A stretch of 64,000 nt of DNA, from the NCBI GenBank assembly GCA_965226535.1, contig CBDDDE010000010.1, positions 1,145,549-1,209,548 on the forward strand. Reading direction: 5' to 3'. Every line of letters begins with the position of its first letter. Positions within the stretch are counted from its first letter, which is position 1. Positions 28,575-51,509 of this stretch are shown piece after piece. Position numbers and translations under genes: made by a program. The notes under the pieces are model-generated. The model saw only the letters and a program-made list of their open reading frames with translations. It was not told the DNA's origin and ran no database searches. Origin of the DNA: Dehalococcoidia bacterium (GTDB lineage: Bacteria; Chloroflexota; Dehalococcoidia; Lucifugimonadales; GCA-2712585).

Positions 28575-29696
28575 TTGGTCCAAGACGATCAGTTTCCCAA
28601 GATAACCGGCGAAGAGCTTGACCGTTTGAAAAAGGTCTTGGGCGTGGAGCTTGAGGTTAGAGACCCCTTCAACCGGTACGCCACCCCCGACACTATCCGG
28701 CACTTTGCCCACGCCATTGGCGACGACAATCCACTTTTCACTGACGAAGAGTACGCCGAATCTACTTCTTGGGCCTCCCCCATAGCCCCGCCCACCTTCC
28801 TCTTCAGCTGCTTTGGCAGAGGGGCGCCACAGGGCTTGCGCGGTATTCACAGCATGTGGGGCGGCGCTTCCTTCGACATGTACGCTCCCATCGCCTCCGG
28901 GGCGCCCATCAAAGGGACCGTGGCCCTCACGGGACTTACGCCGAAGGGGAGCCAATTCGCGGGCAAGACCATCTTGCAAGAGCACGTCTATACCTTCAAA
29001 ACGTCGGAAAACGCGTTCCTTGGCAGGGTGAAGGAGTGGCACCTTAGAACGGAGCGTGACACGGCCCGGCAGCGGGGCAAGCACCGGCGAATGGAACTGG
29101 CCAACTACTCCAAGGAAGACATTGAGCGTATCTATGCAGACTACTTGAAAGAGGAGATTCGCGGGGCCAATCCCCGGTATTGGGAAGACACGGAGGCCGG
29201 CCAAAAACTGCCCCACGTTGTGAAGGGGCCCCTGAGAGTAACCGACAATGTTGCTTGGAAAGTCGGCTGGGGTTTTCGTCCCTTCACCTACGCTCACAAG
29301 CTGGGGGTGGATTACTACAGGAAGCACCCAATGGCCTTCATTACTAACGATCAGGGTGTCCCTGACGTGCCGGAGAGGGTCCACTGGGACCCCGACTTTG
29401 CTCGAAGGGTTGGCGTACCGTCATCCTACGACTTTGGCCCCCAGCGAGTGGCTTGGCTGGGTCAGGTGGTGACTAATTGGATGGGCGACCACGGATTTAT
29501 TGCCAAGTTCCGGGGCGAGGTGCGCCGTTTCAACCTTGTGGGGGATACTCACTGGCTCAGTGGAGAAGTGACGAGCAAGAGCGTTGAGAATGGCCGACAC
29601 ATTGTCACGGTGGCCCTTCGGGGCCTTGACCAGCGCGGCGAGGAAACTATCCGCGGTGGTGCTACCGTGGTCCTCCTCACCAGGGACTCAACGTAA
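28575..29696 (+). CDS. double hot-dog (MaoC-like) acyl-CoA hydratase/dehydratase
   Basis: The N-terminal half reads ...TIRHFAHAIGDDNPLFTDEEYA... (FAS1-like/MaoC_N), followed by a second hot-dog half. Length is 373 aa. TTG start. Confidence 0.7.
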   Translation: MVQDDQFPKITGEELDRLKKVLGVELEVRDPFNRYATPDTIRHFAHAIGDDNPLFTDEEYAESTSWASPIAPPTFLFSCFGRGAPQGLRGIHSMWGGASFDMYAPIASGAPIKGTVALTGLTPKGSQFAGKTILQEHVYTFKTSENAFLGRVKEWHLRTERDTARQRGKHRRMELANYSKEDIERIYADYLKEEIRGANPRYWEDTEAGQKLPHVVKGPLRVTDNVAWKVGWGFRPFTYAHKLGVDYYRKHPMAFITNDQGVPDVPERVHWDPDFARRVGVPSSYDFGPQRVAWLGQVVTNWMGDHGFIAKFRGEVRRFNLVGDTHWLSGEVTSKSVENGRHIVTVALRGLDQRGEETIRGGATVVLLTRDST

Positions 29697-29709
29697 AAGC
29701 ACACCTTCC

Positions 29710-32106
29710 ATGACTGCACCTCTCAACGGAATACGCGTCCTGGACCTGACCTCCTCCCAAGGGCATCTATGTGGACGCCTCCTGGCAGACCTGGGTGCCG
29801 AGGTTGTCAAGGTGGAGCCACCCCAGGGAGACCCCGGACGGCACCTTGGACCCTTCAAAGGCGGGACCGCCGACCCGGAGGCGAGTCTTCCCTTCTCGTA
29901 TTTTAACGCCAACAAGAAGAGTGTAGTCATAGACCTGGCCACGACGGTGGGGCGTGACAAGCTAAGAGATCTGGCCCGTTACTTTGACGTAGTTATTGAG
30001 ACCTATCCTCCCGGCGTCTTGGCGGATTGGGGGCTGGACTACCCCGCCCTCAAGGAGCACAACGCCGGGTTGGTTATGGCCTCCATAACGGGGTTTGGTC
30101 TTTCTGGACCCCACAGTCATTTCAGAGCGCCAAGCATCGTCTGCGCGGCCATGGGGGGCATAATGTACCTGTGCGGCTCCTCGGATAAACCACCGCTGGT
30201 CGAGCCGGAGAACCAGCCCTATCACCTGGCCTCGGCTTTTGCCGCCCTTGGCGTCTTGATGGCCCTGCGGCATCGCGACCTGACCGGCAGGGGACAGCGG
30301 GTTGAGGTTTCCTGTCAGGAGGTACAGGCCGCCCAGCAACACGTCATGGTCAACTACAGCGCCAACGCCAACGTGCTGAAGCGCGCAGGCAGCCGCACCC
30401 CCGTCGGCGGGGGCATGCCCTACGGTGTTTACCCCACTGCCGACGGTTTTTGCCACCTGGTTGTCATCTCGACATCCCACTGGCGCAACTTTGTCAAATG
30501 GATGGGAAACCCTGACGCCCTCACCGATGCCATTTGGGACAACCGCCATACCCGCATCGCCAACGCGGACCTCATTGAGCACTTTACCACCGAGTTCACT
30601 GGCGGGTTTCCAAAGAAAGAGTTTTTCTTACAAGGGCAGTCGCGACGGGTCACGACGGCGCCTATCAATGGACCGGACGAGTTTGTTCGCGATCCACACG
30701 TCCGGCAGACCGAAACTTTTCAGACCCTTGATCATCCCGTTCTTGGCCATTGCAAGCTGGTGCGGCCTCCCTTTAGGTTGAGCGCCACCCCAGCTTCTAT
30801 CAGAAGAGCCGCTCCTGCCCTGGGGCAGGACACGGCAGAAGTCTTGGGCCGAGTTGGAGAAGCGCCTCGGGTCGGCTGCGCGCAGCCCCCTACCGCTACT
30901 ACCCTGCCCCTGGCGGGCCTGCGAATCCTGGACTTGAGCCAAGCCGTTGCCGGGCCGGTGCTAACCCAACTGCTGGCGGCCTTCGGCGCGGAGATTATCA
31001 AGGTTGAGTCTCAGGCTCATCAGCAGCGGGGTCGGGCTCGGGAGGGCATGGACCCTCGGATTGTTCTCCAACAGCGAGTTACCTTCGCTGACATGAACCG
31101 TAACAAACGGTCTATAACTGTCAACCTAGGGACGGAGGAGGGCCGCCGGCTCCTTCGCCGTTTAGTGCCCCGGTGCGACGTTGTCGTAGAGAATTTTAGC
31201 CCACGGGTGATGGACCGATGGGGCCTTGGATATGAGGATCTACGAAAGCTCCGGAATGACATAATAATGGTGCGGCTGCCGGGCTTTGGTCTTGCCGGTC
31301 CCTATAAGGATTACGTTGGATTGGCCGCCGTCGCCATGGCGGTCACCGGTATGTACCATCTGTGGTCCTATCCAGATGCCTCGGAACCCGCGGGCCCTCC
31401 GGTCTGGGCGCCGGACTACCTAAGCGCCGCCTTTGGCGGGGTTGCCCTGTTGTCCGCCCTGCGTCACCGCGACGCCACGGGGGAGGGCCAGCTTGTGGAA
31501 CTTAGCCAGATGGATGCCACGGCCTTCGTTATGGGGGCAACCTATTTGGACTATTTCATTAATGATCACGTCCAAGAACCCATGGGAAACGGCCACTCCC
31601 GTCATGCGCCCCACGGCGTTTACCGCTGCCTAGGCGAGGACCAATGGTGCGTGATTGCCGTTCAAAACCAAGAGGAGTGGGACTCTCTCTGCCGGGTCAT
31701 GGGCTCCCCGAGTTGGGCGGAAGACCCTGCATTCGCCACGCCCCAGGACCGTCTTCGCCATGGTGACAGGTTGGATAGGTGCATTGAGAATTGGACCGTC
31801 CGCCATTCGGCTCACAACGTAATGGACACCCTTCAGGAGGGCGGAGTTCCCGCCGCGGTGGTCCAGGATGGAGCCAGCCTTTTTAGCGACTCTCACCTCA
31901 GAGACAGGGCATTCCTTACCACCGTTGACCATCCCCTCACAGGCCCCATAGAATACCCCAACGTGCCTCTTAGACTATGGGAAACCCCCGGACGCTTGGA
32001 CCAGTGGCATACTATGGGACAGGACAATGCCTACGTATTGGAAACCCTTCTGAACCTAACGCCGGAGGAGATATCGGCACTTCAGCGATCCCAGGCCCTG
32101 GAGTAA
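29710..32106 (+). CDS. tandem-fused family III (CaiB/BaiF) CoA-transferase-like protein with two complete domains
   Basis: Two N-terminal signature blocks are present: LNGIRVLDLTS...LLADLGAEVVKVEPPQGDPGR and LAGLRILDLSQAVAGPVLTQLLAAFGAEIIKVES. ORF 29584..32106 trimmed to the ATG at 29710, just after the upstream stop at 29696. Confidence 0.85.
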   Translation: MTAPLNGIRVLDLTSSQGHLCGRLLADLGAEVVKVEPPQGDPGRHLGPFKGGTADPEASLPFSYFNANKKSVVIDLATTVGRDKLRDLARYFDVVIETYPPGVLADWGLDYPALKEHNAGLVMASITGFGLSGPHSHFRAPSIVCAAMGGIMYLCGSSDKPPLVEPENQPYHLASAFAALGVLMALRHRDLTGRGQRVEVSCQEVQAAQQHVMVNYSANANVLKRAGSRTPVGGGMPYGVYPTADGFCHLVVISTSHWRNFVKWMGNPDALTDAIWDNRHTRIANADLIEHFTTEFTGGFPKKEFFLQGQSRRVTTAPINGPDEFVRDPHVRQTETFQTLDHPVLGHCKLVRPPFRLSATPASIRRAAPALGQDTAEVLGRVGEAPRVGCAQPPTATTLPLAGLRILDLSQAVAGPVLTQLLAAFGAEIIKVESQAHQQRGRAREGMDPRIVLQQRVTFADMNRNKRSITVNLGTEEGRRLLRRLVPRCDVVVENFSPRVMDRWGLGYEDLRKLRNDIIMVRLPGFGLAGPYKDYVGLAAVAMAVTGMYHLWSYPDASEPAGPPVWAPDYLSAAFGGVALLSALRHRDATGEGQLVELSQMDATAFVMGATYLDYFINDHVQEPMGNGHSRHAPHGVYRCLGEDQWCVIAVQNQEEWDSLCRVMGSPSWAEDPAFATPQDRLRHGDRLDRCIENWTVRHSAHNVMDTLQEGGVPAAVVQDGASLFSDSHLRDRAFLTTVDHPLTGPIEYPNVPLRLWETPGRLDQWHTMGQDNAYVLETLLNLTPEEISALQRSQALE

Positions 32107-32116
32107 ATGCCGTCCA

Positions 32117-33385
32117 ATGAATTCCATTCCTCAGGAAAATGGCTCTCTGGACGGGGTTAGAGTGCTGGACTTGACCCGGGTGCTGGCAGGGCCTTTCTGT
32201 ACTCGTATGATGGCTGACATGGGGGCCCACGTTATCAAGGTTGAGCCCCCCGGCGGCGACGCGGCGCGGCAGTTTGAGTACACGACGCCTGAGGGCGTCA
32301 GCGGCTACTTCATGCAACAGAACTGCGGGAAGCAGGATATTTCCCTTGACCTGGCCGACCCGTCAGCCAGGGAGGTGATGCGTCGATTGGTTCAGGTCTC
32401 CGACGTGGTGGTGGAGAATTTTCGCCCCGGAGTTATGGCACGACTGGGCTTTGACTACGAGAATTTGCGCAAGCTGAATTCTTCCATCATCATGTGCTCT
32501 ATCAGCGCCTTTGGACAGGACAGCCCCTACGCAAACCGGCCTGCCGGGGACATGGTTGTCCAGTCAATGAGCGGCATCGCGTCGCTGACCGGAGACCCCT
32601 CCGGGCCGCCACAGACCACCGGGATGTCGCTGAGCGACACAACGGGCGGTATCCACGCCTTTGGGGCCATCTGCGCCGCTCTGTATCGCAGAAGCATCAC
32701 CGGCCGAGGGCAGCTCATAGACGTCGCTCTGGTGGACTGTATCCTCTGGCAGAATGAGTGGGCCAGCCAGTATCTCTTTCTTAGCGACGGAAAGGAAGTA
32801 CCCACAAGGTACGGCAACCGGCGCCCGATTCTGATACCGGGCAACCTGTTTATGGGGAAGGACGGTTGGGTGGCCATTGTGGCTTCCACCGACCCTGGCT
32901 GGCAAAACCTGACTAGGGCCATGGGACTTCCGCATTTGGCCCAGGATAGCCGCTTTAAGGACCGCTCCGCCCGGATGGCCCACCGGGATGAGTTGGAAAG
33001 CATTGTCGAAAGCTGGGTGGGTTCCTTTGATTCTGTCCAACAGGTGGAGGAGCTGCTGGCGGACAAGGGCGGGGTCCAGTGCGGCAGGGTGAGGTCATGG
33101 AAGGAGATGCTGGAGGACCCCCACGTGGAACGGCGGAAGCTGATTGCCGAGGTGGAGGACCCCCTTCTTGGCCCAACGCCCGTAATGAACTCCCCCTTCC
33201 GACTCCGCGGCGCCCAAGCGCAGGTGAGCGGCCCCGCTCCCCTGCTGGGCCAACACACGTACCCGGTCCTTCGAGAGCTTCTAGGCTACGGCAACCAAGA
33301 AATTCTGGACATGGTTAACGCCAACGCGCTTCATGCAGAGCCTGCTGTCATGGCAAGCCTTGTCCAACGCCTGATGGCTCCCTAA
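32117..33385 (+). CDS. family III (CaiB/BaiF) CoA-transferase
   Basis: LDGVRVLDLTRVLAGPFCTRMMADMGAHVIKVEPPGGD. The catalytic-Asp context is RPAGDMVVQSMSG (Asp codon 32549-32551). Confidence 0.9.
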   Translation: MNSIPQENGSLDGVRVLDLTRVLAGPFCTRMMADMGAHVIKVEPPGGDAARQFEYTTPEGVSGYFMQQNCGKQDISLDLADPSAREVMRRLVQVSDVVVENFRPGVMARLGFDYENLRKLNSSIIMCSISAFGQDSPYANRPAGDMVVQSMSGIASLTGDPSGPPQTTGMSLSDTTGGIHAFGAICAALYRRSITGRGQLIDVALVDCILWQNEWASQYLFLSDGKEVPTRYGNRRPILIPGNLFMGKDGWVAIVASTDPGWQNLTRAMGLPHLAQDSRFKDRSARMAHRDELESIVESWVGSFDSVQQVEELLADKGGVQCGRVRSWKEMLEDPHVERRKLIAEVEDPLLGPTPVMNSPFRLRGAQAQVSGPAPLLGQHTYPVLRELLGYGNQEILDMVNANALHAEPAVMASLVQRLMAP

Positions 33386-34943: not shown

Positions 34944-36137
34944 CTACTTTCGATAACCAGCCAGATGAGAGAGCCGCTCCCGCACCTTGGCAAAGGTTTC
35001 GGGCCGCTTGGGAAAGGCAAAACGCACGTAGGGCTTGCCCAACTCGTCGTCGTGGTAAAAGGCCCTTCCCGGGACCGGCGTCACGCCTATCTTGCTTGAT
35101 AGGAACATGGAAAAATCGTTGTCGTTGTCGTAGCCGCAGTCCGGGTACCTGGTCATAACGTAGTACGCGCCCTTGGGCGTAATGTAGTCGAAGCCCATTT
35201 CTCCAAGAATGGAAAGCATAGTGTCGCGGCGATGCACATAGCCCTCAGCCAACTCCGCGTAATAGCTCTTTGGGAACCGCAAGGCCACGGCGGCGGCTTC
35301 CTGCAGCGGTGCCGCGGCCCCCACCGTTACGAAGTCGTGGGCCCGGCGAATACCTGTGGTGATTCCCTCGTCGAGGGCAATGGCCCAGCCGATGCGCCAA
35401 CCGGTGACGCTGTAGGTCTTTGACAAGCTGTTAATCGTAATGGTACGGGTTTCCATGCCCGGCAGCGACGCGATGCTGTGATGCGCGTCACCGTCAAAAA
35501 TAATGTGCTCGTAGGGTTCGTCAGTGATGGCCAGGGAGTCGTGTTCCTGACAGAGGGCGCTGATGATTTCCAGTTCGGCGTGGGAGAAGACCTTGCCCGT
35601 GGGGTTATGGGGCGTGTTGATGACAACGGCCTTTGTCTTTTTGGTGAACGCCCGCCGGAGTTCATCGGGATCGAAGGCAAAGGAGTCACCCCGCTGGTGC
35701 AACCGGACGTAAACGGGAATGCCTTGGCAAAGCAAAGTGTCCGGTCCGTAGTTCTCGTAAAAGGGCTCAAAGATAATCACCTCGTCGCCGGGGTCGATGA
35801 CCGCCAGCATGGTGGAGAACATGGCCTCGGTGCCGCCGCAAGCGATTGTGACGTGCTTATCGGGGTCTACGGTGACGCCGTTATACCAGCCGAATTTCTC
35901 CGCCAAGGCCTGACGAAGCGCCGGGGCGCCCCAGGTGATGGCGTACTGGTTGTAGCCGTTGTCCAAGGCTGCCTTGGCGGCCTCAATCAGCTCCCTGGGC
36001 GGATCAAAGTCCGGAAACCCTTGGGCCAAGTTAATGCCGTCGTTCAGGTTATTCACGCGGGTCATCTCTCGAATGATAGACTCGGTGAACAACCCCACCC
36101 TGTGCGAGAACCGCTCAGTGGGCAACGAATTATCCAT
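34944..36137 (-). CDS. class I/II PLP-dependent aminotransferase
   Basis: NLAQGFPDFDPP, INTPHNPTG, and SLSKTYSVTGWRIGW (PLP lysine). Start moved to the ATG at 36137 (GGAG upstream). Confidence 0.88.
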   Translation of the reverse strand: MDNSLPTERFSHRVGLFTESIIREMTRVNNLNDGINLAQGFPDFDPPRELIEAAKAALDNGYNQYAITWGAPALRQALAEKFGWYNGVTVDPDKHVTIACGGTEAMFSTMLAVIDPGDEVIIFEPFYENYGPDTLLCQGIPVYVRLHQRGDSFAFDPDELRRAFTKKTKAVVINTPHNPTGKVFSHAELEIISALCQEHDSLAITDEPYEHIIFDGDAHHSIASLPGMETRTITINSLSKTYSVTGWRIGWAIALDEGITTGIRRAHDFVTVGAAAPLQEAAAVALRFPKSYYAELAEGYVHRRDTMLSILGEMGFDYITPKGAYYVMTRYPDCGYDNDNDFSMFLSSKIGVTPVPGRAFYHDDELGKPYVRFAFPKRPETFAKVRERLSHLAGYRK

Positions 36138-36196
36138 ATATCTCCAAATTATATACGGGCAATCTCCGGGCAAAAGGTTACCACGTTGAACGCCGT

Positions 36197-37093
36197 TTAG
36201 CTACTTTTCGCGGGTGGGGAGAGAAGGTCAACGGCGGACCTGATGGTTTGGGCCGTGGTACGGTCCTGATCTACGGATTCCGCCCGCTCCGTAGCGAAGG
36301 GAGTCTCGCTTAGGAGACGATAGATCTCCGCGGCCCCTTGGTGAAAGTGCGGTGGCAGGCCCAACTGTTCATAGGTGGCGGCAATCTCTTCCATCTCACC
36401 AATCCAACGGGATGCCCTGGCCGGGAGTCTGGATAACCCGGAATTCATCTGATTGAAAGCATGGGATTGACTGGACTGCAGCTCTTGTCCCAGCTCCTCC
36501 GAGAGGCCCAGGGACTCCGCTGCGGAAAGTACTGCAACGTGGAGCGCGGAGGTGCCCTTGGTTAGCCCCGCATAGCACATTTTGATGCCGGACGCCCTGC
36601 CTACCTCGTTTCCCAAGTTCTTTACTACTATGTCCATGCCGTCCATCTCAGACATTATGTGGGAGTGCTTTCCGGACGTGTAGAAACGAGGAAAGGCGCC
36701 CTTTCGGGGCGGGTTGCCGATAATAGAGGCGTCAATGTATCTGCCCCCAGCCCCGGTGATTATGGCCTCTATGGCCTTTGTGGTCTCGGGCGACACGGCG
36801 TTGCAATCAGCGTAGTAGGCGTTGGAGCGAGTGTCGCCAAGGGCCTTGGCAACCTGCTGCGCCAACATAGTGGCGTCCAACGGCACCATTATGGACAGCA
36901 CCAGGTCAGCTCTCTTCACCACTTCCTCCAAGTTCGGGACGTCCTCAATGCCTGCCTCACGGGCCAACCTTTGAGTCCTTTCGCTCCGCCCCTTGAGGCA
37001 GGTTATGGTGTTAAGTCCACCTTCACGCAAAGCCCTGCCCACGGCATGGCCCATGTCTCCGGGACTCAAGATTGCTACAGTTCTAAGAGGCAT
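36197..37093 (-). CDS. NAD(P)-dependent oxidoreductase (6PGDH-type NAD-binding domain, DUF1932-like C-terminus)
   Basis: VAILSPGDMGHAVGRAL dinucleotide fold. Length is 298 aa. It begins 36 nt downstream of the biotin carrier gene. Confidence 0.65.
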   Translation of the reverse strand: MPLRTVAILSPGDMGHAVGRALREGGLNTITCLKGRSERTQRLAREAGIEDVPNLEEVVKRADLVLSIMVPLDATMLAQQVAKALGDTRSNAYYADCNAVSPETTKAIEAIITGAGGRYIDASIIGNPPRKGAFPRFYTSGKHSHIMSEMDGMDIVVKNLGNEVGRASGIKMCYAGLTKGTSALHVAVLSAAESLGLSEELGQELQSSQSHAFNQMNSGLSRLPARASRWIGEMEEIAATYEQLGLPPHFHQGAAEIYRLLSETPFATERAESVDQDRTTAQTIRSAVDLLSPPAKSS

Positions 37094-37129: not shown

Positions 37130-37540
37130 TCAATCCAACTCCGCTATGGCATCCCCAATGAGCACATTTTGGCCCTGTTTTACGTGAATTGTCTTGATGG
37201 TTCCGTCTTTGGGCGCCAGTAGCGCCTGCTCCATTTTCATCGCCTCAATTACGCAGACCTTTGTGCCCGCGGCGACACTTTCACCAACGTGGACGTCCAC
37301 GGAGAGAATGACCCCTGGCAAGGGGGAGCGTACCACGTTTTCGTCGTTGGTATCTGCCGAGCCGGTGGAGGCTGAGGTCGGTGGGGTGTCGACCCGCTTG
37401 GCTTCGGTCGACACCCCGGCGGCGCCCAGATCCACGACAACCGGCTCCTGGTCCACCAGCACCTTGATGCTGGTCCCTTCCCACTCCCCCACGTCCACGT
37501 TGTACCACCGGTTATCTATTTTGACCCGAAGTCGGCGCAT
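37130..37540 (-). CDS. biotin carboxyl carrier subunit (GcdC/MmdC-like)
   Basis: Biotinylation motif VIEAMKMEQAL. The N-terminus MRRLRVKIDNRWYNVDVGEW is followed by a Thr/Ser/Ala linker. Confidence 0.85.
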   Translation of the reverse strand: MRRLRVKIDNRWYNVDVGEWEGTSIKVLVDQEPVVVDLGAAGVSTEAKRVDTPPTSASTGSADTNDENVVRSPLPGVILSVDVHVGESVAAGTKVCVIEAMKMEQALLAPKDGTIKTIHVKQGQNVLIGDAIAELD

Positions 37541-37708
37541 TTAGGGACCTTTCTTGGGACTGTCTAGGTGTGAAGCCAAAATATGTATAGGAAAGTCCAC
37601 CGTTACGCCGCGCAGGGTGTCGTTTAAGAGGGGACCTGGGCATTATATCATCCCATCTCATGGGTCGCCGCGATTCAGTGCCTGGTCATTCCCCGCACGC
37701 TTGGGTGT

Positions 37709-38848
37709 CTAGCCAAGGATCGAAATGAAAACGCCCGCCACGACAGCAGACCCGATAACTCCGGCCACGTTTGGTCCCATGGCGTGGGGCAGGAGGAAGT
37801 TCTGTGGGTTGTCTCTTTGCCCCATGTTATGGGACAAACGGGCGGCCATGGGGACTGCGGAGACGCCCGCCGAGCCGATAAGCGGATTTACTTTTTCCCT
37901 TACGAAAAGATTCATCCCCTTGGCGAAGAGGAGTCCGCTTGCGGTGCTGAAGGCAAATGCTCCGAGGCCCAGGCCCAAGATTTTTACAGTGTCTACGTCA
38001 AAAACCCGCTCCGACGACAGCTGCGCTCCAACTGTAATCATCAGGAATATCGAGGCGACGTTGAGAATCTCGTTGGATGCCGCGTTATAGAGCCTGGGTA
38101 CTACGCCGCTTTCCCTGAACAGGTTGCCTATCATAAACATGGCTATCAGCGGCGCTGACTCCGGGACCACCAGGATGATGATTACCATGGTGGCGGTGGG
38201 GAAAAGGAGCTTCTCCAAGCGTGATACTTCTCTCAAGGGTCTCATGACAATCTGCCGCTCCGCCTTAGTGGTCAGGAGCCGCATCAACGGGGGTTGAATG
38301 AATACTACGCTGGCCATGTAGGAGTAGGCCGTTATGGCCGTTATGCCCAGGAGATCGGGAGCCAATCGCGCCGAGGCAAATATGGTGGTAGGACCGTCGG
38401 CTCCGCCGATGATGGCAATGGCCCCCGCTTCTTTCATGCTAAAGCCAGCAACCAAGGCTATCCATAGGGCCGCGAATACGCCCATTTGCGCCGCGGCGCC
38501 TAGAAGCAACGTCTTGGGGTTTGCGATGATTGGGCCAAAGTCAGTCAGGGCGCCTAGGCCAAGAAAGATGAGGGGCGGCAGGATGTTCCACTTGAACAGG
38601 GCAAATTCGAAGATAAGTCCCAGAATTCCCGACCCGTGCTGCTCTGCCGTGGGTGAGTAGTTTGTCAGGCCAGTCAAAGGTAAGTTGGCCAGGATGATAC
38701 CCACGCCTATGGGAAGTAGAACGTAAGGCTCCGTTTTCTTGGCTATGGCGACGATGGCGAAAGCAGCGCCCACAAGCAGCAGCAGCAAATTTTGCCAGTC
38801 TAGGTTGGTGAGTCCGCTGGCGTTTAGAAAGTCTTTGAACTCTTCCAC
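37709..38848 (-). CDS. Na+-translocating decarboxylase beta subunit (OadB/GcdB/MmdB family)
   Basis: 379-aa polytopic membrane protein. It has the ...IGVGIILANLP..., GGADGPT and PHAMGPNVAGVIGSAV blocks typical of the family. GTG start. Confidence 0.88.
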   Translation of the reverse strand: MEEFKDFLNASGLTNLDWQNLLLLLVGAAFAIVAIAKKTEPYVLLPIGVGIILANLPLTGLTNYSPTAEQHGSGILGLIFEFALFKWNILPPLIFLGLGALTDFGPIIANPKTLLLGAAAQMGVFAALWIALVAGFSMKEAGAIAIIGGADGPTTIFASARLAPDLLGITAITAYSYMASVVFIQPPLMRLLTTKAERQIVMRPLREVSRLEKLLFPTATMVIIILVVPESAPLIAMFMIGNLFRESGVVPRLYNAASNEILNVASIFLMITVGAQLSSERVFDVDTVKILGLGLGAFAFSTASGLLFAKGMNLFVREKVNPLIGSAGVSAVPMAARLSHNMGQRDNPQNFLLPHAMGPNVAGVIGSAVVAGVFISILG

Positions 38849-38851
38849 TGG

Positions 38852-39121
38852 CTAGGACCCTACTTGGTCCGCATCCTTTATCTTGCCCGGAACGTGCCCC
38901 TGGCTTAACGCAATGTTCACCGCTATTGTTGCCGCAAGGGCCTTGTCTCTCTTCTCCTTGTCATCCACCGTCTCCGGGGCGGTTCTAGTTGAGATTGTTG
39001 AAAGCGCTTTCGCCAGATAATGCAGCGCTGCGGTGAGAATCGACAGGATAGTCAGAAGGCTGAAGGCTGTGCCTATGCCTATTATTGTAATGGTGAGAGC
39101 CTGACCGGTGTCAAAGTTGAT
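38852..39121 (-). CDS. possible OadG-like small membrane (gamma/delta) subunit; start codon uncertain
   Basis: Manual translation gives ...TINFDTGQALTITIIGIGTAFSLLTILSILTAALHYLAKALSTISTRTAPETVDDKEKRDKALAATIAVNIALSQGHVPGKIKDADQVGS*. Its stop (38852-38854) is 3 nt before the oadB-like GTG. The frame is open over 38855-39172, but no ATG, GTG or TTG lies upstream of the TM helix. Confidence 0.4.
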   Translation of the reverse strand: MNFDTGQALTITIIGIGTAFSLLTILSILTAALHYLAKALSTISTRTAPETVDDKEKRDKALAATIAVNIALSQGHVPGKIKDADQVGS

Positions 39122-39251
39122 GGTAGTCCCCCTCTGCCCGTGGCTATAGAGGTAAGTGGGAATTTTACACCCCTAGCCGCCTTTAGCACCAGACTAAGAC
39201 CATTCCCGTGACACGATATGCCCTCGTCGATATTTATCCTGCCGCTTCTTG

Positions 39252-39281
39252 GTGACTATGCCAAGGGTAGCCATATATAAT
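39252..39281 (+). promoter_or_regulatory. candidate promoter for pxpA in the divergent intergenic region
   Basis: GTGACT (39252-39257), 18-nt spacer, TATAAT (39276-39281). GGGAGGGG lies before the ATG at 39346. Confidence 0.35.
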
Positions 39282-39345
39282 GAGACGTCTGTAGATGCTG
39301 AAGTAGGGAGTTTTCCGCTATATTAGTTGCGGGAGGGGCACGAAC

Positions 39346-40110
39346 ATGGCTACTAAGATAGACTTCAACTGCGACATGGGCGAAAGTTTTGGCATGTATA
39401 AGCTGGGTTATGACGAAGAGGTGATCAGCTATATAACGTCGGCCAACATAGCCTGCGGATTCCATGCCGGCGACCCAATGTGGATGCGCACCACTGTTGA
39501 GCTTGCAGAGAAGCACGGCGTCGGCGTTGGCGCCCAACCAAGCTTTCCCGACCTCATGGGTTTTGGACGACGTAACATGAGCGTGAGCGCCGAGGAGGCC
39601 AGGAACGACGTTACTTACCAGATAGGAGCGCTCCAGGCCTTTGCCAGTGACAAGAAGCTCCAGCACGTAAAGCCCCACGGGGCCATGTACAACATGGCCG
39701 TGGCAGATCACGCCTTGGCTCAAGCTATCTGCCAGGCTGTCTTGGACGTGGACCCTGATATGATTGTGGTGGCCCTGGCAGGTTCGAAATGGGTGGATAT
39801 GGCCGCTGAAATGGGCTTGCGGGTAGCTCGTGAAGCTTTCGCCGACCGGGCTTTCACCGCTCAAGGCACACTGGTGCCTCGCTCCCAGGCTGGATCTGTA
39901 ATACACGACGTGGACGAGGTGGTCCGGCGCAGCGTCAGAATGGTTACTGAGGGTAAGGTCACTGCCATCACCGGCGAGGAAGTGGAAATCCACGCTGACA
40001 GCCTTTGCTTACACGGGGACACGCCGGGGGCCGTCGACATGGCCCGCGCTGTCAAGGAAGGCCTTAATGCAGCCGGTGTGGAGATAGTGCCTATGAGAAG
40101 CTTGGTATAG
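39346..40110 (+). CDS. pxpA: 5-oxoprolinase subunit A (LamB/YcsF family)
   Basis: IDFNCDMGESFG...SANIACGFHAGDP...KPHGAMYN. Confidence 0.88.
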   Translation: MATKIDFNCDMGESFGMYKLGYDEEVISYITSANIACGFHAGDPMWMRTTVELAEKHGVGVGAQPSFPDLMGFGRRNMSVSAEEARNDVTYQIGALQAFASDKKLQHVKPHGAMYNMAVADHALAQAICQAVLDVDPDMIVVALAGSKWVDMAAEMGLRVAREAFADRAFTAQGTLVPRSQAGSVIHDVDEVVRRSVRMVTEGKVTAITGEEVEIHADSLCLHGDTPGAVDMARAVKEGLNAAGVEIVPMRSLV

Positions 40111-40113
40111 CTA

Positions 40114-40842
40114 ATGTACCGGGAGCCACGCTTTCTACACGCCGGAGACCGCGCTTTGGCCGTGGAACTCGGCGACGACATCAGCCCTGAGACCAATGGC
40201 GCCGTCCGTGATTTGCTTGCGGCCATAGAAGATCTGGCCCTTGACGGCATCACCGATCTGGTGCCTTCATACAGGTCTATTCTGGTGCACTACGACCCCC
40301 TGGTAATAGATATTTCCCGTCTTGAGGAGGAATTAACGACCCTTCAAGCGGCGGCTTCATCTGGAAGCGTGTCCGAACCCCGGTGCGTACTAATTCCGGT
40401 CCTCTATGGCGGCGACGCCGGGCCGGACTTGGAGCACGTGGCCCGGTACAATAGTCTCAGTACCGAAGAGGTTGTTGACATTCACTCCGGCACGAAATAT
40501 CTGGTCTACATGCTTGGATTCTCCCCTGGGTTCCCCTATCTGGGCGGAATGTCCGAGCGTATTGAGACACCCAGATTGGACACCCCTCGGACGGCCATAC
40601 CCGCCGGCTCCGTGGGGATCGCAGAGAAGCAGACGGGGGTCTATCCCACCGAGACGCCGGGGGGGTGGCAGCTCATCGGCAGAACCCCCCTAGCCTTCTT
40701 CGACCCTAGCGTCGAGCCGCCGTGCCTTCTGGAGCCCGGGGACTTTATAAGATTTGTTCCCATTGATGAAGGCGAGTATCATCGTATGGCCCTGCAGGTG
40801 AAGGACGGGACCTACCAAGTTGCAACTGAGATGACGGATTAG
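40114..40842 (+). CDS. pxpB: 5-oxoprolinase subunit B (KipI / CT_C_D fold)
   Basis: RFLHAGDRALAVELGD..., YLVYMLGFSPGFPYLGG, IPAGSVGIAEKQTGVYP. Confidence 0.85.
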   Translation: MYREPRFLHAGDRALAVELGDDISPETNGAVRDLLAAIEDLALDGITDLVPSYRSILVHYDPLVIDISRLEEELTTLQAAASSGSVSEPRCVLIPVLYGGDAGPDLEHVARYNSLSTEEVVDIHSGTKYLVYMLGFSPGFPYLGGMSERIETPRLDTPRTAIPAGSVGIAEKQTGVYPTETPGGWQLIGRTPLAFFDPSVEPPCLLEPGDFIRFVPIDEGEYHRMALQVKDGTYQVATEMTD

Positions 40843-40846
40843 ACGC

Positions 40847-41989
40847 GTGGAGACTATAGAGGTAGTTGAGGGCGGACTGTTCACTTCGGTCCAGGACCTG
40901 GGGCGCTACGGCTATCAGCGATACGGTGTCCCCGTGTCCGGGGCCATGGACCCTTATTCTCTGCGCTTGGCTAACATCCTTTTGGGGAACCCGGAGGGGG
41001 CCGCCGCCCTTGAGATAACCTTGGTGGGGCCAAAGCTCAAGTTCCTGGCCAACACGACTATAGCCCTGGGCGGGGCCGATCTAGCGCCCAGGCTCAACGG
41101 CTCGCCCGTTCCTCCGTGGCAGTCTTTTAGAGTGGCAAAGGGCAGCTTGCTTACCTTCGATGGGCCTAGGTCCGGCGTGAAATCTTACCTTGCCGTCCCA
41201 GGCGGGATTGACGTGCCGGTGGTCATGGGCAGCAGGTCTACCTATTCCCAGGGATCCCTTGGGGGCCATGAAGGTCGCAGCCTAAAGCCCGGGGACCGCA
41301 TATCAGTCTTGCGAAAGGACGCCGGCTCTTACCCTAATTCCGCTACCATACCTCGCAGCCTGGTACCGGGTCGGGAGCACGATTTCCGGATCAGAGTGGT
41401 CATGGGCCCGCAGGCGGACGCCTTTACGCCCGAGGGCATTGCTGTCTTTTTCAGCTCCACCTACACCGTCAGCCAGAAGTCGAACAGGATAGGATACCGG
41501 CTTCAAGGACCGGCTGTAGACCACTTGAAGAGCGCTGACATCATATCCGACGGCGTCACTTTTGGAGCGGTCCAAATTACCGGCGACGGGCTTCCCGTAG
41601 TTCTCATGGCCGACCGGGGCACCACGGGGGGATACACCAAGATAGGAGCAGTTATCAGCGTTGATATAGGGGAATTGGCCCAGACCCTTCCCGGTGACCA
41701 CATTACCTTTCAGGCAGTTTCCGTGGAAGAGGCACACCGGCTGCTGTCGGAGAGGGAAGAGGCACTTGAAAAGTTCAAAGGGCACGTCACGCAAACTGTA
41801 GCAACAAAAAACTCCGGCCTTCGGATATTGGTAAACGGCCAAGCCTTTGAAGTCCAGGATGAAGACCACGCAAACATTGCTCAGAAGGAGCCTCTGGCGG
41901 GGGACGTCCACACCTATAGAAGAATAATTACCGCCACTGTTAACGACCGCTCCTATACCTTTGAAGTTGAGGTTCAGGACCCCGCGTAA
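40847..41989 (+). CDS. pxpC: 5-oxoprolinase subunit C (KipA / CT_A_B fold) with a ~65-aa C-terminal extension
   Basis: IEVVEGGLFTSVQDLGRYGYQRYGVPVSGAMD..., SNRIGYRLQG, TTGGYTKIG. GTG start. The extension covers 41780-41989. Confidence 0.85.
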   Translation: METIEVVEGGLFTSVQDLGRYGYQRYGVPVSGAMDPYSLRLANILLGNPEGAAALEITLVGPKLKFLANTTIALGGADLAPRLNGSPVPPWQSFRVAKGSLLTFDGPRSGVKSYLAVPGGIDVPVVMGSRSTYSQGSLGGHEGRSLKPGDRISVLRKDAGSYPNSATIPRSLVPGREHDFRIRVVMGPQADAFTPEGIAVFFSSTYTVSQKSNRIGYRLQGPAVDHLKSADIISDGVTFGAVQITGDGLPVVLMADRGTTGGYTKIGAVISVDIGELAQTLPGDHITFQAVSVEEAHRLLSEREEALEKFKGHVTQTVATKNSGLRILVNGQAFEVQDEDHANIAQKEPLAGDVHTYRRIITATVNDRSYTFEVEVQDPA

Positions 41990-46370: not shown

Positions 46371-46623
46371 GTCACGTCCCTTATATTTGGCTTTCTGAAT
46401 GCTCCACTGCCCACCAATAGGTGAGCAGCCGCTGCTGCGACTGTGGATGGCGTCATTATAGCAGCGGCCATGAGGCGCTACCACTTTAACCCTACCCTCT
46501 TCGAAACGGGCACATGTTGCATTGCATTGGCGTGGTTGAATGAGGGGCTGGAGTAGGTCGTTGACTTGTGCGTCCCAAGACAGCACAATAATCTCAGCTT
46601 TATTTGGCCAAGGGGTGGTATCT

Positions 46624-46827
46624 ATGAGCGACCTAACCAAAGAAGAGGTAAAGTCACTGGGGCGCGCCGCCGGACTCGATATACAAGAGCCTCACCTCTC
46701 TGAAGTCACCTACAACATCAACGCCTTGAAAGAGCTCCTGGACGACCTCAACCCGCCGGGACTCGACGAGGTAGAACCCTTGCCAATAATCCATCCCTAT
46801 GAACAGCTTGATAATGGACAAGGCTAG
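46624..46827 (+). CDS. GatC-like small subunit
   Basis: MSDLTKEEVKSLGRAAGLDIQEPHLSEVTYNINALKELLDDLNPPGLDEVEPLPII follows the GatC pattern. AAGGGGTGG lies upstream. The 3' end overlaps the amidase start. Confidence 0.6.
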   Translation: MSDLTKEEVKSLGRAAGLDIQEPHLSEVTYNINALKELLDDLNPPGLDEVEPLPIIHPYEQLDNGQG

Positions 46828-48238
46828 TATCCCCTTCCTGTCCGCCGTGGAACTGGGGCGCCGCATCGGTCTTCGGGAAGTGTCCCCCGTTGAGGTCGTC
46901 GAGGCGTACCTGGATCGAATTGATAGGTTGGACAATCAGCTAAACAGCTACATTACCGTATGTAGGGACGAGGCCTTGCAGTCAGCCCACCAAGCGGAGT
47001 TGGCCATTGGCGGCGGCACCTACTTGGGACCCCTTCACGGCGTGCCTGTTGCCGTTAAGGACCAGCTTTGGACCAAGGGGGTGCTTACCACCGGTGGGTC
47101 CAGAATACTGGCCGATTTTGTCCCCGATGAAGACGCCACCGTGATATCGCGTCTGAAGAACGCCGGGGCCATTATCCTGGGCAAGCTCAACATGAGCGAG
47201 TTTGCCACGGGGAACAGCGTTTACCACCATTGGGGAACGCCTCGAAACCCTTGGGACCTGGCTCGGAACCCCGGCACTTCCAGCAGCGGCTCCGGGGCCG
47301 CTACGGCCGCCTTCCTTTGCGCAACTTCTCTGGGAGAAGACACCGGCGGCTCCATACGCAACCCAGCTACCAACTGCGGCGTGGTGGGCCTTAGACCCAC
47401 CTATGGGCTGGTAAGCCGCTACGGCATGCTGGGCGCCTCCTGGTCCAACGACATTGCCGGCCCCATCTCTCGTTCGGCGGAGGACTGCGCGGTTACGCTC
47501 CAGGCCATCGCCGGGTACGACGCCAAGGATGGATACAGCGCCAAGCGCCCCACGCCGGACTACAGGAAGGCGCTGGAGGGCGACATCAAGGGTCTCAAGG
47601 TGGGAGTTGTCAAGGAGGCCCTCTACGCCGATTTTGTCCAGTCCGATATTCGGGACACGGTGTCAAAGGCCATCGAACAGTTGGAGGAGTTGGGAGCTTC
47701 CGTACAGGAGGTATCCATACCTCTCCTGCCCTATACCGCCTCCATCAACCGGATTCATATAGAGGTGGAAGCGGCGCCCATGCATCGTGGCTGGCTTCAG
47801 ACGCGGCCGGACGACTACGACCACAACGTTAGGACCGATTTCCTCACCGGCTCGGTGCTGCCTGCACAGCTCTACTACAAGGCCCAGAAGCTGAGGGAGT
47901 TGGTTCGGCGCCAGGTATTTCATGTTTTGGACGAGGTGGACGTGCTTGCCCTTCCCAACACGTCGGAGCCGGCTCCCCTCATCAATACCAAACCTGGCAT
48001 ATTCAGCAAAGAAGAGGCCATGTCCAGGATGTCGGGGCGTCGCAGCTTGTCGGGCTCTTTCAACCTTGCCAGTGTGCCCGCGTTGGCCGTCCACTGCGGC
48101 TTTGTGACGTCCACGGGAACCAGGATGCCCACGGCCTTGCAACTGGCCGGGCGTCCCTTCTCCGATGCCCTGCTGCTCAAGGTGGCCCACCTTTACCAAC
48201 AAGCCACTCAGTGGCATACTCAAAGGCCCCCCATCTAG
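46799..48238 (+). CDS. amidase-signature (GatA-like) amidase
   Basis: The Ser-cisSer-Lys triad context is present: PVAVKDQL, GTSSSGSGAATAA, GEDTGGSIRNPA. Confidence 0.9.
   Translation: MNSLIMDKASIPFLSAVELGRRIGLREVSPVEVVEAYLDRIDRLDNQLNSYITVCRDEALQSAHQAELAIGGGTYLGPLHGVPVAVKDQLWTKGVLTTGGSRILADFVPDEDATVISRLKNAGAIILGKLNMSEFATGNSVYHHWGTPRNPWDLARNPGTSSSGSGAATAAFLCATSLGEDTGGSIRNPATNCGVVGLRPTYGLVSRYGMLGASWSNDIAGPISRSAEDCAVTLQAIAGYDAKDGYSAKRPTPDYRKALEGDIKGLKVGVVKEALYADFVQSDIRDTVSKAIEQLEELGASVQEVSIPLLPYTASINRIHIEVEAAPMHRGWLQTRPDDYDHNVRTDFLTGSVLPAQLYYKAQKLRELVRRQVFHVLDEVDVLALPNTSEPAPLINTKPGIFSKEEAMSRMSGRRSLSGSFNLASVPALAVHCGFVTSTGTRMPTALQLAGRPFSDALLLKVAHLYQQATQWHTQRPPI
48189..48238 (+). repeat. direct repeat copy A (functional 3' end of the amidase gene)
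   Basis: The 50-nt string acctttaccaacaagccactcagtggcatactcaaaggccccccatctag recurs at 48620-48668. Confidence 0.9.
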
Positions 48239-48551: not shown

Positions 48552-48619
48552 ATATCACCATTCCTTAGTTGTGGTTGGGAGACTAGATGGCATTATACCT
48601 GTGCGGTAAAGGTGCGGAT

Positions 48620-48668
48620 ACCTTTACCAACAAGCGACTCAGTGGCATACTCAAAGGCCCCCATATAG
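48620..48668 (+). repeat. direct repeat copy B (displaced copy of the amidase 3' end)
   Basis: Differs from copy A at 3 positions (one C>G, one missing C in the C-run, one C>A). Confidence 0.9.
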
Positions 48669-49229
48669 CGGACCGCTTATCACTTTTTGACAGAGGATTT
48701 TGACTATGCCGGCTCGGCGCAACAACCCGGAAACCACACGTGAAGAGGCGGTTAACACCCTTTGGCGCAAATGCTGGGTGAGTTCTCTGTCTTCCAATCA
48801 ACATAACAAAGTACGCTTCTCGTGGACAGTCGATTTGGATACACTTGGGAGTGAGTAGGTACGTCTGCCGACCGACCCACCCACGGGTTCACGCCCCCAG
48901 GTGGCAGGGCTGGACATATCGAGAACCGAGGCCGATTCCGGCGTCACACCGTCCGACGGCATGGGGATAGTTTTCCCTCCTCTTTTCTTCTCACCAGGGG
49001 GGCTGCATACACCTGCGCCTGGCTGTTCCCCCAAATTCTTGTCTATGGCATCGCCCCGTCCCGAGCCGCCACTCTGCGGAATACGTGGATAACGGCATGG
49101 GAGAGGAGACCACTCCTCTGGCAAGTTGTCTCCTCCAAGCGAATCGGCGGGGCTTGATAAAAAGAGTGTCGGCCCATATCATAGCTCCGGCTTCGACCTA
49201 ACTAATTCTTGCGTGGATATATATACACG

Positions 49230-49466
49230 ATGGTGAACGGTGAATCTAATCCACAAAAGCCCGCATCCGAGGAACTTCTCAACCAAGTTGAAGAATCCTT
49301 GACTGCTGGCCCTGTTCGTGACCTGTGGTTGGGTGTGCGTGCAGAATTAGCTGAAAACGGACCGGGAGCCGTGCGCACCTATTTGCAGTCAGAATTTCAA
49401 AGAAGACGGGGCATAGTCGAGAATGCACTGCAAGAACTATCAGGTCAGTTGGAGGACATCGCTTAA
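49230..49466 (+). CDS. hypothetical small helical protein
   Basis: ORF 49209..49466, with a likely ATG at 49230. Its TAA overlaps the ATG of the following ATPase remnant (TAATG). No family was recognised. Confidence 0.35.
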   Translation: MVNGESNPQKPASEELLNQVEESLTAGPVRDLWLGVRAELAENGPGAVRTYLQSEFQRRRGIVENALQELSGQLEDIA

Positions 49467-49788
49467 TGCCTAGATCGTTTTTTCGCATCAAAGGCGTTAC
49501 CATTGAAGGGTTCAAAGCATTCACTGAGCGACAGTCTTTTGATCTGGATGGCCGCCAGGTATTTTTTTCGGCGAGAATGGTCTGGGCAAGACCAACGTTG
49601 TGGAGGCAATTCGGTGGTGTTTATTCGGTTTAGCATCCAGAAGAGGGGGGACAATCAAGAATCAGTTCTATGGAGGGGATTGCATCGTAGAGCTGACGTT
49701 GCAAGCTCCAGACGGGATTTGGTCGTTCCAGAGACGCCTTAGTCAGTCGGGCGGGATTGGCCCCTCTACAATCCGTGAACCTAGCTAG
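49466..49788 (+). pseudogene. N-terminal remnant of an SMC/RecF-like ABC ATPase (frameshifted and truncated)
   Basis: MPRSFFRIKGVTIEGFKAFTERQSFDLDGRQVFF is followed, in another frame, by GENGLGKTNVVEAIRWCLFG... (Walker A). The shift lies in the T7 run at 49562-49568. A stop occurs at 49786-49788 after ~105 codons. Confidence 0.65.
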
Positions 49789-49797
49789 GGTCACGGC

Positions 49798-50816: not shown

Positions 50817-50865
50817 CTGGCCTTTTTACCTTCCAGGGATTTGCTGGAACCATTGCTCACTGGCC

Positions 50866-51100
50866 GGTCACGTCCCTGCTCCGTTATCGCCCTGCTGCTC
50901 AAGGTGGCCCACTGTTACCAGACAAGCAAACTCAGTGGACGGGTACTCGGAAGGTTTTCCCTGCCATATAGCGCAGGGCCGGCTGTCGTCAAAAACTCTT
51001 CATGACATCTACGTTGCATCCAATCGTAACCAAAGCAGGCAAGCCCCCCATTAGGAAAGCCACCTTTTACGTCTTCGGCAATCCTAAACCGCGCTTACAT
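50866..51100 (+). repeat. copy C: decayed duplicate of the amidase-3'/CMD-3' convergent junction
   Basis: 50889-50912 is identical to 48167-48190, and 51025-51065 is identical to 48276-48316. The translated remnants read ...GRSRPCSVIALLLKVAHCYQ... (amidase-like) and ...VAFLMGGLPALVT... (CMD-like, minus strand). Confidence 0.85.
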
Positions 51101-51241
51101 TCCAGAAGCGGGCGTACCGGGCGTCGTTGTAGTCTATCTGAATGGACACTTAGGCCCTCAGAGTATGTCGATTTCCAATAGGGCAAGCCCGAGGACGAGA
51201 CCGCACTCCGGGGCATCACCCACACGGGCCCGCCTTAAACG

Positions 51242-51452: not shown

Positions 51453-51479
51453 CTATCAATAAAAAGTCGCCACACCCCC

Positions 51480-51509
51480 TTGACATCCTGGCGCCCGGCA
51501 CCTTACTAT
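51480..51509 (+). promoter_or_regulatory. candidate strong sigma70-type promoter
   Basis: TTGACA (51480-51485), 18-nt spacer, TACTAT (51504-51509). Confidence 0.4.

Follow-up and report, generated by a model that had tools for sequence, protein, structure and literature searches.

Conserved genomic linkage between a sodium-pump decarboxylase module and PxpABC-type proteins suggests a biotin-dependent membrane-coupled enzyme in SAR202-type Chloroflexota and Methylomirabilota

Introduction

Which protein moves the carboxyl group on or off the biotin carrier of a sodium-pump decarboxylase module when no carboxyltransferase of a known type is encoded beside it? The question is posed by a locus in a stretch of 64,000 nucleotides from a Dehalococcoidia bacterium (GenBank assembly GCA_965226535.1, contig CBDDDE010000010.1, positions 1,145,549–1,209,548; this whole 64-kb stretch is called the window, and coordinates are counted from its first nucleotide). 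On the minus strand lie genes for an OadG-like anchor, an OadB-family β-subunit and a biotin carboxyl carrier protein (BCCP), and on the plus strand, transcribed divergently, lie pxpA, pxpB and pxpC. A first-pass annotation of the window had described this gene set, had noted that it lacks an OadA/GcdA/MmdA-type carboxyltransferase and a biotin carboxylase within 64 kb, and had suggested that the PxpB and PxpC proteins (PxpBC) could be the missing carboxyl-transfer module of an undescribed decarboxylase, the alternative being an ordinary 5-oxoprolinase that happens to sit next to the pump.

Based on gene content, conserved linkage, gene fusions and predicted folds, we propose that OadG, OadB, the carrier and the PxpABC-type proteins form one biotin-dependent, membrane-coupled enzyme in which PxpBC would act as the carboxyl-transfer partner of the pump, a reading to which we assign a rough probability of 55%. 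The recurrence of the arrangement across SAR202-type Chloroflexota and Methylomirabilota suggests an enzyme that has so far escaped description. The conserved genomic association is well supported, and the mechanism set out below is a proposal.

Gene content of the locus

All six genes of the first-pass annotation were recovered at their assigned positions using Pfam and NCBIfam, including the carrier with its EAMKME motif, and the gap given there as about 225 bp measures 224 bp between the start codons of oadG and pxpA (39122–39345). The carrier (37130–37540, minus strand; 136 residues) matches Biotin_lipoyl with an E-value of 6.4e-18 through the motif region VIEAMKMEQ; the OadB/GcdB/MmdB-family β-subunit (37709–38848, minus strand; 379 residues) matches OAD_beta (PF03977, E = 4.9e-138) and TIGR01109; and the OadG-like single-helix anchor (38852–39121, minus strand; about 89 residues) matches PF04277 (E = 7.6e-8). 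On the plus strand, PxpA (39346–40110; 254 residues) belongs to the LamB/YcsF family (LamB_YcsF, E = 1.2e-102), PxpB (40114–40842; 242 residues) corresponds to subdomains C and D of the urea-carboxylase carboxyltransferase (CT_C_D, E = 2.6e-78), and PxpC (40847–41989; 380 residues) to subdomains A and B (CT_A_B, E = 9.5e-98). The PxpC core, which ends in a long helix, is encoded at 40847–41809, and a C-terminal two-hairpin extension, residues 322–380 (LRILVNGQAFEVQ ... ITATVNDRSYTFEVEVQ), at 41810–41989.

No Carboxyl_trans, HMGL-like/PYC_OADA or biotin carboxylase domain was found by Pfam among the open reading frames (ORFs) of the window that were scanned, namely all those of at least 300 residues and several shorter ones, with some assignments taken from the near-identical locus L001. 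Within this span the lack of a canonical carboxyltransferase and of a biotin carboxylase is thus upheld.

Conservation of the linkage

The first-pass annotation had left it to a neighbourhood comparison whether oadB and the carrier recur beside pxpABC; they do, and the divergent pairing is kept. The window has the look of a SAR202-type Dehalococcoidia genome, and the nearest relatives are Dehalococcoidia metagenome-assembled genomes (MAGs) throughout. In species-representative genomes we took the 80 top-ranking PxpC loci and found OadB and a carrier no more than 7 kb upstream of pxpA, in divergent orientation, in 28 of them, at PxpC identities to the window of 43–69%. The distance between the OadB and pxpA starts is usually 370–800 bp and reaches 1.8–3.6 kb in five loci. 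The whole unit is retained in L003, at 61% PxpC identity, and in L004, at 52% identity, OadG-OadB-BCCP is again divergent from PxpA-PxpB-PxpC amid wholly different flanking genes. The pump is adjacent in none of ten loci with a short PxpC, versus 27 of about 66 loci in which PxpC carries the C-terminal extension.

The same linkage appears when the search starts from the pump. Among the 80 closest OadB loci, 15 adjoin pxpABC, and in a separate scan from the OadB of a Methylomirabilota MAG all 15 loci at 78% identity or higher, which form one deep clade, are linked to pxp genes. In two Methylomirabilota loci (L168 and L169) an extension-bearing PxpC is the sole pxp product encoded beside OadG-OadB-BCCP, PxpA and PxpB being absent there, an arrangement that points to PxpC as the conserved partner of the pump. 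OadB matches at 57% identity or below (Desulfobacterota, Myxococcota, Planctomycetota) have no pxp genes beside them. In a further locus, L171, OadB is followed at 8262–9058, where the carrier gene would be expected, by ORFs of 170 and 95 residues, and tblastn detected no carrier within that locus.

We built a neighbour-joining tree from 103 distinct OadB sequences, 38 from pxp-adjacent modules, 31 from orphan modules with a BCCP and 34 from modules without a BCCP. The pxp-adjacent and the BCCP-bearing orphan modules are interleaved within the same clades, a pattern that looks like repeated joining and separation of pxp and a single orthologous module, and the 34 BCCP-less OadG-OadB modules occupy clades of their own with no pxp-adjacent member. 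Neighbours of the orphan modules, as judged by reading their sequences, resemble SufS, TatD, RecQ, a copper ATPase, pyruvate kinase and solute-binding proteins, and the same reading revealed no carboxyltransferase or biotin carboxylase among those that recur. The frequency of orphan modules implies that the carboxyltransferase of the pump, whatever its kind, is often encoded in trans in this lineage. The linkage is far beyond chance, yet it is not obligatory.

The pump module

The OadB protein covers all 349 positions of the OAD_beta profile (1–349) and scores 441 bits on TIGR01109 (cut-off 190.6), and against Salmonella OadB (6IVA) it aligns with an E-value of 3.9e-101. The segments GGADGPT, AYSYMA and NPLIGSAGVSAVPMAAR are identical or conserved; we take them to hold the residues that mutagenesis in the Dimroth laboratory found essential (D203, Y229, N373, G377, S382 and R389). 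The catalytic motifs of this OadB are intact, and by family membership the protein is predicted to be a membrane carboxybiotin decarboxylase and Na+ channel.

The OadG-like ORF scores 33.4 bits on PF04277, above the gathering score of 27, which places it among the γ/δ anchors; it falls under the cut-off of TIGR01195, and its protein carries the C-terminal motif KALAATIAV. No ATG, GTG or TTG precedes the transmembrane helix in this ORF. A conserved ATC or ATT stands 5–8 nt past a strong Shine-Dalgarno sequence in nine related loci, namely the window (39119–39121, minus strand), L003, L005, L008, L080, L085, L089, L094 and L096, with an in-frame stop immediately before that codon in several of them, and the probable start of oadG is therefore a non-canonical ATC at 39121–39119. 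The gene is unlisted in the called-gene tables of L001–L003. In more distant relatives oadG starts with ATG or GTG.

In the carrier, a linker rich in Pro, Ala and Thr joins an N-terminal hairpin domain (RLRVKIDNRWYNVDV...IKVLVDQEPVVVDL) to the biotinyl domain, which bears the EAMKME motif. Its highest-ranking NCBIfam models describe small BCCPs, MmdC and the C-terminal portion of OadA, residues 66–136 match biotinyl domains in the PDB, and the N-terminal hairpins are kept in all relatives of the carrier. The module thus shares with the NaT-DC family (oxaloacetate, methylmalonyl-CoA, glutaconyl-CoA and malonate decarboxylases) a full-length OadB-type β-subunit, an OadG-type anchor and a small carrier that resembles GcdC/MmdC and begins with a hairpin domain. 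It differs in that no α-subunit of the OadA type (HMGL-like/PYC_OADA) or Carboxyl_trans type (GcdA/MmdA/MadCD) lies nearby, its partner instead being PxpC/PxpB of the urea-carboxylase carboxyltransferase fold together with PxpA, and in that its direction is possibly reversed.

A second clade of OadB paralogues is present in SAR202 genomes (L097–L132 and L145–L162; for example L100, 6478–8143). It is accompanied by a longer OadG-like protein (about 138 residues, PF04277 E = 3e-4), has no adjacent biotin carrier, and shows no carboxyltransferase among those recurrent neighbours whose sequences were read.

PxpA, PxpB, PxpC and the PxpC extension

PxpA and PxpB pass the cut-offs of their NCBIfam models (NF003814, 379 bits, cut-off 226; TIGR00370, 223.6 bits, cut-off 145.6). 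PxpC passes TIGR00724, a model named for the "5-oxoprolinase/urea amidolyase family" (331 bits, cut-off 230), and fails the PxpC equivalog NF045499, with 255.7 bits vs a cut-off of 500. Its score on the urea carboxylase model, 248 bits, is about equal to the latter, and on these scores PxpC appears equidistant from bona fide PxpC and urea carboxylase. An AlphaFold 2 model computed from an alignment of 79 sequences (mean predicted local distance difference test score, pLDDT, of 85) shows the YbgK/urea-carboxylase fold for residues 1–290, a long helix at 293–321 and then two hairpins at 326–334 and 354–379 with pLDDT values of 70–83. Foldseek with the core returned 5dud_A (E = 6e-29), Kluyveromyces lactis urea carboxylase 3va7 (E = 1.7e-27; TM-score 0.74, normalised to the query) and the mycobacterial protein MSMEG_0435, 3mml (E = 4e-25). 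The best PDB match of PxpC is E. coli YbgK, and its homology to MSMEG_0435 is clear (3mml_A, E = 1.7e-42; 9yx5_V, E = 3.9e-41).

The extension, which the first-pass annotation did not mention, adds about 65 residues to PxpC relative to YbgK of E. coli and KipA of B. subtilis. Its two motifs, hRhxVxGxxaEV and, after a spacer of about 20 residues, hxATVxGxxYTFEVEV, are kept across dozens of homologues; it is present in about 66 of the 80 related PxpC loci and absent from PxpC of the E. coli and Rhizobium types. Aligned with the N-terminal hairpin of the carrier using hhalign, the extension gives a probability of 87.5% and an E-value of 3.6e-6 over 14 columns only, and its profile weakly matches, among PDB sequences, the N-terminus of a 137-residue BCCP (8hz4_E, E = 0.13). 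The OadA-like protein encoded in L048 carries a hairpin motif of this kind, AFMVRVGEDVFRVEVEP, directly ahead of its biotinyl domain, and we presume that the motif also marks the "association domain" of OadA that binds the OadG tail. The extension could accordingly serve to dock the carrier or the γ-subunit, an idea that we treat as a lead, not a result. Its assignment as a pyruvate-carboxylase PT domain or an OadA association-type domain is a conjecture, Foldseek of the isolated extension against the PDB having found nothing.

In comparison with the PxpABC 5-oxoprolinase (E. coli YbgJKL; B. subtilis KipI/KipA/YcsF), which is ATP-dependent and biotin-independent in its canonical form, the three families and the fold are shared, the gene order here being pxpA-pxpB-pxpC; the present system differs by the PxpC extension, the failed equivalog cut-off and the links to a biotin carrier and a membrane pump. 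Urea carboxylase/amidolyase shares the carboxyltransferase fold with its subdomains A–D, split here over two proteins, and the proposed logic, in which carboxybiotin would N-carboxylate an amide before hydrolysis (there by allophanate hydrolase). The differences from it are that no biotin carboxylase (ATP-grasp) domain is found in the window, that the carrier is a separate 136-residue protein and not a fused domain, and that a membrane OadB would take the energy-coupling role.

Other links between PxpBC and biotin

Proteins of the PxpBC type are connected with biotin in several other genomic settings. Fusions of PxpC with a biotinyl domain occur in P0066/L167, with pxpA as the following gene, and, with the biotinyl motif LEAMKMQ, in a pair of Acidobacteriota genomes (L059 and L068). 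Beside the Acidobacteriota fusion no biotin carboxylase was found; the upstream 465-residue ORF has no Pfam match, and the downstream 464-residue ORF reads as a transporter-like protein of the major facilitator superfamily (MFS). In L165/L166 (2581–9161) a biotin protein ligase, an OadA/PycB-like protein (HMGL-like, PYC_OADA and Biotin_lipoyl), an MFS transporter, PxpB and an extension-bearing PxpC are encoded together, PxpA being absent, and in L048 (5344–9851) the OadA-like gene is convergent with pxpABC. These loci could reflect two different carboxyltransferases that share a single carrier, in the manner of a transcarboxylase.

A Ralstonia solanacearum megaplasmid (CP022793.1) and a Rhizobium leguminosarum plasmid (NZ_CP140865.1) carry clusters annotated as BCCP, accC, PxpB and PxpC, with an extra small BCCP-like protein encoded ahead of pxpB in Rhizobium and past pxpC in Ralstonia. 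In Rhizobium pxpC is followed by pxpA, the gene at the corresponding place in Ralstonia being annotated as hypothetical, and a pyridoxal-phosphate-dependent aminotransferase and a NAC regulator lie nearby. These clusters share with the present locus the carrier, the Pxp proteins and a nearby aminotransferase; they differ in that their ATP-grasp biotin carboxylase supplies the carboxybiotin and in that the Rhizobium PxpC has no hairpin extension. The SAR202 cluster can thus be seen as a counterpart in which OadG and OadB occupy the position held there by the ATP-grasp biotin carboxylase. Our literature searches found no paper describing the function of BCCP–AccC–PxpB–PxpC–PxpA clusters.

Physical binding has been seen in a mycobacterial system: by cryo-electron microscopy, the PxpC/PxpB homologues MSMEG_0435/0436 bind two BCCP domains of AccA3, one biotin being "positioned to participate in a carboxylation reaction" (Liang, Bueler and Rubinstein, PNAS 2026, PMC13012033). 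MSMEG_0435/0436 differ from the system described here in being an accessory or inhibitor of a soluble carboxylase and in lacking PxpA, a pump linkage and the extension.

Neighbouring genes and transcription

Beyond the carrier gene, also on the minus strand, lie genes for an NAD(P) dehydrogenase (DUF1932/NAD-binding by Pfam; 36197–37093) and a class I/II aminotransferase (34944–36173), separated by gaps of 36 bp (carrier to dehydrogenase) and 23 bp (dehydrogenase to aminotransferase). From their shared orientation and tight spacing, the three pump genes, the dehydrogenase and the aminotransferase probably form one operon of five genes. The dehydrogenase and aminotransferase also follow the carrier gene in L001–L003, L005–L008, L023, L080 and L085–L096.

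The 224-bp divergent region presumably holds control elements shared by the two units. It contains a sigma-70-like site on the plus strand (39252–39281; GTGACT-18-TATAAT, a 10/12 match), the number of such sites in the region not exceeding that in shuffled sequences (4 vs 2.5 ± 1.8); a promoter and terminator scan of the locus likewise gave nothing above shuffles, and Rfam and tRNA scans matched no family or tRNA in the window, this region included.

Proposed mechanism

We infer that the soluble and membrane parts associate physically and that PxpBC carries out carboxyl transfer, PxpB and PxpC together providing a site at which CO2 would be moved between the biotin of the carrier and an amide or lactam nitrogen. 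The carrier would swing its biotin between this site and OadB, OadB would couple carboxybiotin to Na+ movement across the membrane, OadG would anchor the assembly, and PxpA, the presumed lactam-opening component, would hydrolyse the ring. The helix and two hairpins of PxpC may dock the soluble part to the N-terminal hairpin of the carrier, to the OadG tail or to both. The substrate may be 5-oxoproline, which we adopt by default, or another lactam.

Two directions are conceivable. In a forward mode, PxpA would open a cyclic ureide or carbamate-type ring to give an N-carboxylated product, PxpBC would hand the carboxyl group to biotin, and OadB would decarboxylate it with export of Na+; to our knowledge, this decarboxylating direction is that of all characterised family members. 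In a reverse mode, Na+ influx through OadB would carboxylate biotin, PxpBC would N-carboxylate the lactam as urea carboxylase does urea, and PxpA would open the activated ring, after which the carbamate would lose CO2, so that the sodium gradient would replace ATP in driving an uphill lactam opening. The ring-opened amino acid could then feed the co-transcribed aminotransferase and dehydrogenase.

Within the proposed model we lean slightly toward the reverse mode, for three reasons: (i) the only Pxp reaction known costs energy, PxpBC being reported as an ATPase and PxpA as a lactamase (PMC8453981), (ii) an ATP-driven biotin carboxylase stands in the place of the pump in the proteobacterial clusters, where the flow would be from carboxybiotin to substrate, and (iii) the aminotransferase and dehydrogenase encoded next door would suit the breakdown of an amino acid released by ring opening. 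The term "decarboxylase" used in the first-pass annotation may have the direction wrong, since the same proteobacterial clusters point from carboxybiotin to the substrate. Pumps of the OadB type were reportedly found to be reversible in vitro by Dimroth and Hilpert in 1984. A more specific version, which we hold only tentatively and think rather less probable than not, is that OadG/OadB would constitute a Na+-gradient-driven biotin carboxylase feeding PxpBC, making the whole an ATP-free amidolyase, and that one such module may serve several SAR202 PxpABC paralogues.

Weighing the proposal

For PxpBC as the carboxyl-transfer module, as the first-pass annotation had suggested, speak the linkage in two phyla, the PxpC–BCCP fusions, the clusters that combine a biotin carboxylase and BCCP with PxpBCA, and the binding of BCCP biotin by homologous proteins; these lend the suggestion partial support. 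Several observations weigh against it. Almost half of the distinct BCCP-bearing modules (31 of 69, about 45%) lie away from pxp, and on at least five chromosomes (OY762210.1, CBDHFB010000016.1, CBDCEF010000004.1, OY282441.1 and OZ240222.1) an orphan module and an extension-bearing pxpABC are both present far apart. The absence of a carboxyltransferase rests on the 64-kb window, and a canonical gene may lie elsewhere in the genome. We know of no precedent for physiological reversal of an OadB-type pump. The PxpC extension and the carrier hairpin resemble each other over a short stretch; for a model of the extension alone (mean pLDDT 72.6) Foldseek found no structural counterpart in the PDB (best E about 1); and of 30 extensions a single one matches either of two small-BCCP models of NCBIfam, with an E-value of about 2e-3, the rest being noise. 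The extension also occurs in nearly all SAR202 PxpC proteins, both beside a pump and away from one, and a one-hairpin version of PxpC is found in Clostridia beside a D-glutamate cyclase, a search of the neighbourhood of this Firmicutes PxpC for a biotin carboxylase or BCCP having returned none. Finally, canonical PxpBC reportedly works as a biotin-independent ATPase, with PxpA as a lactamase (PMC8453981), and MSMEG_0435/0436 showed no detected urea carboxylase activity and lowered propionyl-CoA carboxylase activity (PMC13012033).

The foremost competing explanation is that an ordinary ATP-dependent 5-oxoprolinase or lactamase lies beside a Gcd/Mmd/Oad-type Na+ pump whose carboxyltransferase is encoded elsewhere, adjacency then reflecting a shared pathway or regulation. 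Such a dispersed gene would not be unusual: gcdA of Acidaminococcus fermentans is in a separate operon from gcdDCB, and the many orphan pump modules make a carboxyltransferase in trans look normal for the lineage. The scores of PxpA and PxpB above their NCBIfam cut-offs and E. coli YbgK as the best PDB match of PxpC fit this explanation, as does the co-transcription of the pump genes with an aminotransferase and a dehydrogenase, which suits amino-acid catabolism. It leaves unexplained, however, the PxpC–BCCP fusions, the BCCP–AccC–PxpBCA clusters, the PxpC-only pairing in Methylomirabilota and the carrier-like extension of PxpC; PxpC moreover fails its equivalog cut-off (256 vs 500 bits), and no canonical carboxyltransferase was found in the 64 kb or among the recurrent neighbours of orphan modules. 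On balance we regard this explanation as unlikely, while taking it seriously. The simpler alternative raised by the first-pass annotation, a 5-oxoprolinase that merely happens to be adjacent, is thus unlikely as pure coincidence and survives in the form of a linkage at the level of the pathway.

A regulatory role, in which PxpBC would sequester the carrier biotin and throttle a pump that uses another carboxyltransferase, draws on the mycobacterial proteins, which sequester BCCP biotin with about 50% inhibition and without urea carboxylase activity (PMC13012033), and to one of which, MSMEG_0435, PxpC is homologous (3mml, E = 1.7e-42; 9yx5, E = 3.9e-41). A regulator would have no need of covalent fusion to the carrier, though, and the hydrolase PxpA is co-conserved in nearly all Dehalococcoidia loci, while many operons combining a biotin carboxylase or BCCP with PxpBCA look enzymatic; we consider this role improbable. 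That the two units are chance neighbours with no functional link is rejected on the synteny counts. Adjacency is indeed missing in many relatives, but the share of 3-Mb genomes expected to hold two given operons 7 kb or less apart is far below 1%, and the two units are so found in 28 of 80 loci and, within one clade, in 15 of 15, in two phyla, amid different flanks and with the divergent orientation kept, so that mere coincidence has next to no probability.

Literature searches for a pairing of oadB with pxp, and for SAR202 with oxoprolinase or sodium decarboxylase, returned nothing relevant, and no paper on an OadB-type pump linked to PxpABC was found. If PxpBC is indeed the carboxyl-transfer partner, the urea-carboxylase/KipI-KipA fold would constitute a further class of carboxyltransferase for Na+-pump decarboxylases, and the puzzling biotin links of PxpBC-type proteins, which are annotated under such names as "allophanate hydrolase subunits" and "biotin-dependent carboxyltransferase family protein", would acquire a biochemical role. 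If the pump runs in reverse, biotin carboxylation would for the first time in nature be seen to draw on an ion gradient instead of ATP, which would amount to a new energy-coupling principle for biotin enzymes. SAR202 Chloroflexota abound in the deep ocean and are believed to break down recalcitrant organic matter, and, the system being widespread among them, it may matter for the energy cost or gain of breaking down nitrogen-containing rings. The six genes are compact, which makes heterologous expression feasible as a direct and cheap test.

Other features of the window

A hydantoinase/oxoprolinase A-type protein (Hydant_A_N and Hydantoinase_A) is encoded at 11430–14057 beside an S-Me-THD-like protein (PF06032/PF20906), with no HyuB-type partner, and is possibly a second ring-opening system in the window. 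At 46540–46827 a small ORF (67–95 residues, no Pfam match) overlaps the start of an amidase-signature enzyme at 46799–48238; the pair is kept in the clade of the window (families f28 and f17) and is reminiscent of two-subunit amidases of the GatC/GatA-like or AtzG/AtzE-like kind.

A stretch of 3.2 kb (48560–51790) has no convincing ORF, a lower G+C content (0.53) and no tRNA or Rfam match. It is bracketed by duplicated pieces of neighbouring genes (50 nt at 48276/51025, 92% identical; 32 nt at 48200/48631, 97%) and looks like an insertion or rearrangement scar. An ORF of 568 residues at 7368–9074 joins two domains, an N6/N4 DNA methylase and a restriction endonuclease of the Mrr or "NACHT-associated inactive" type. 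Family III CoA-transferases are represented by four domains or genes at 29584–33385 and 52699–53925, one of them a fused double protein of 840 residues, and the window further contains two Ldh_2, two NHL, two Amidohydro_2 and two luciferase-like monooxygenase paralogues, an expansion typical of SAR202.

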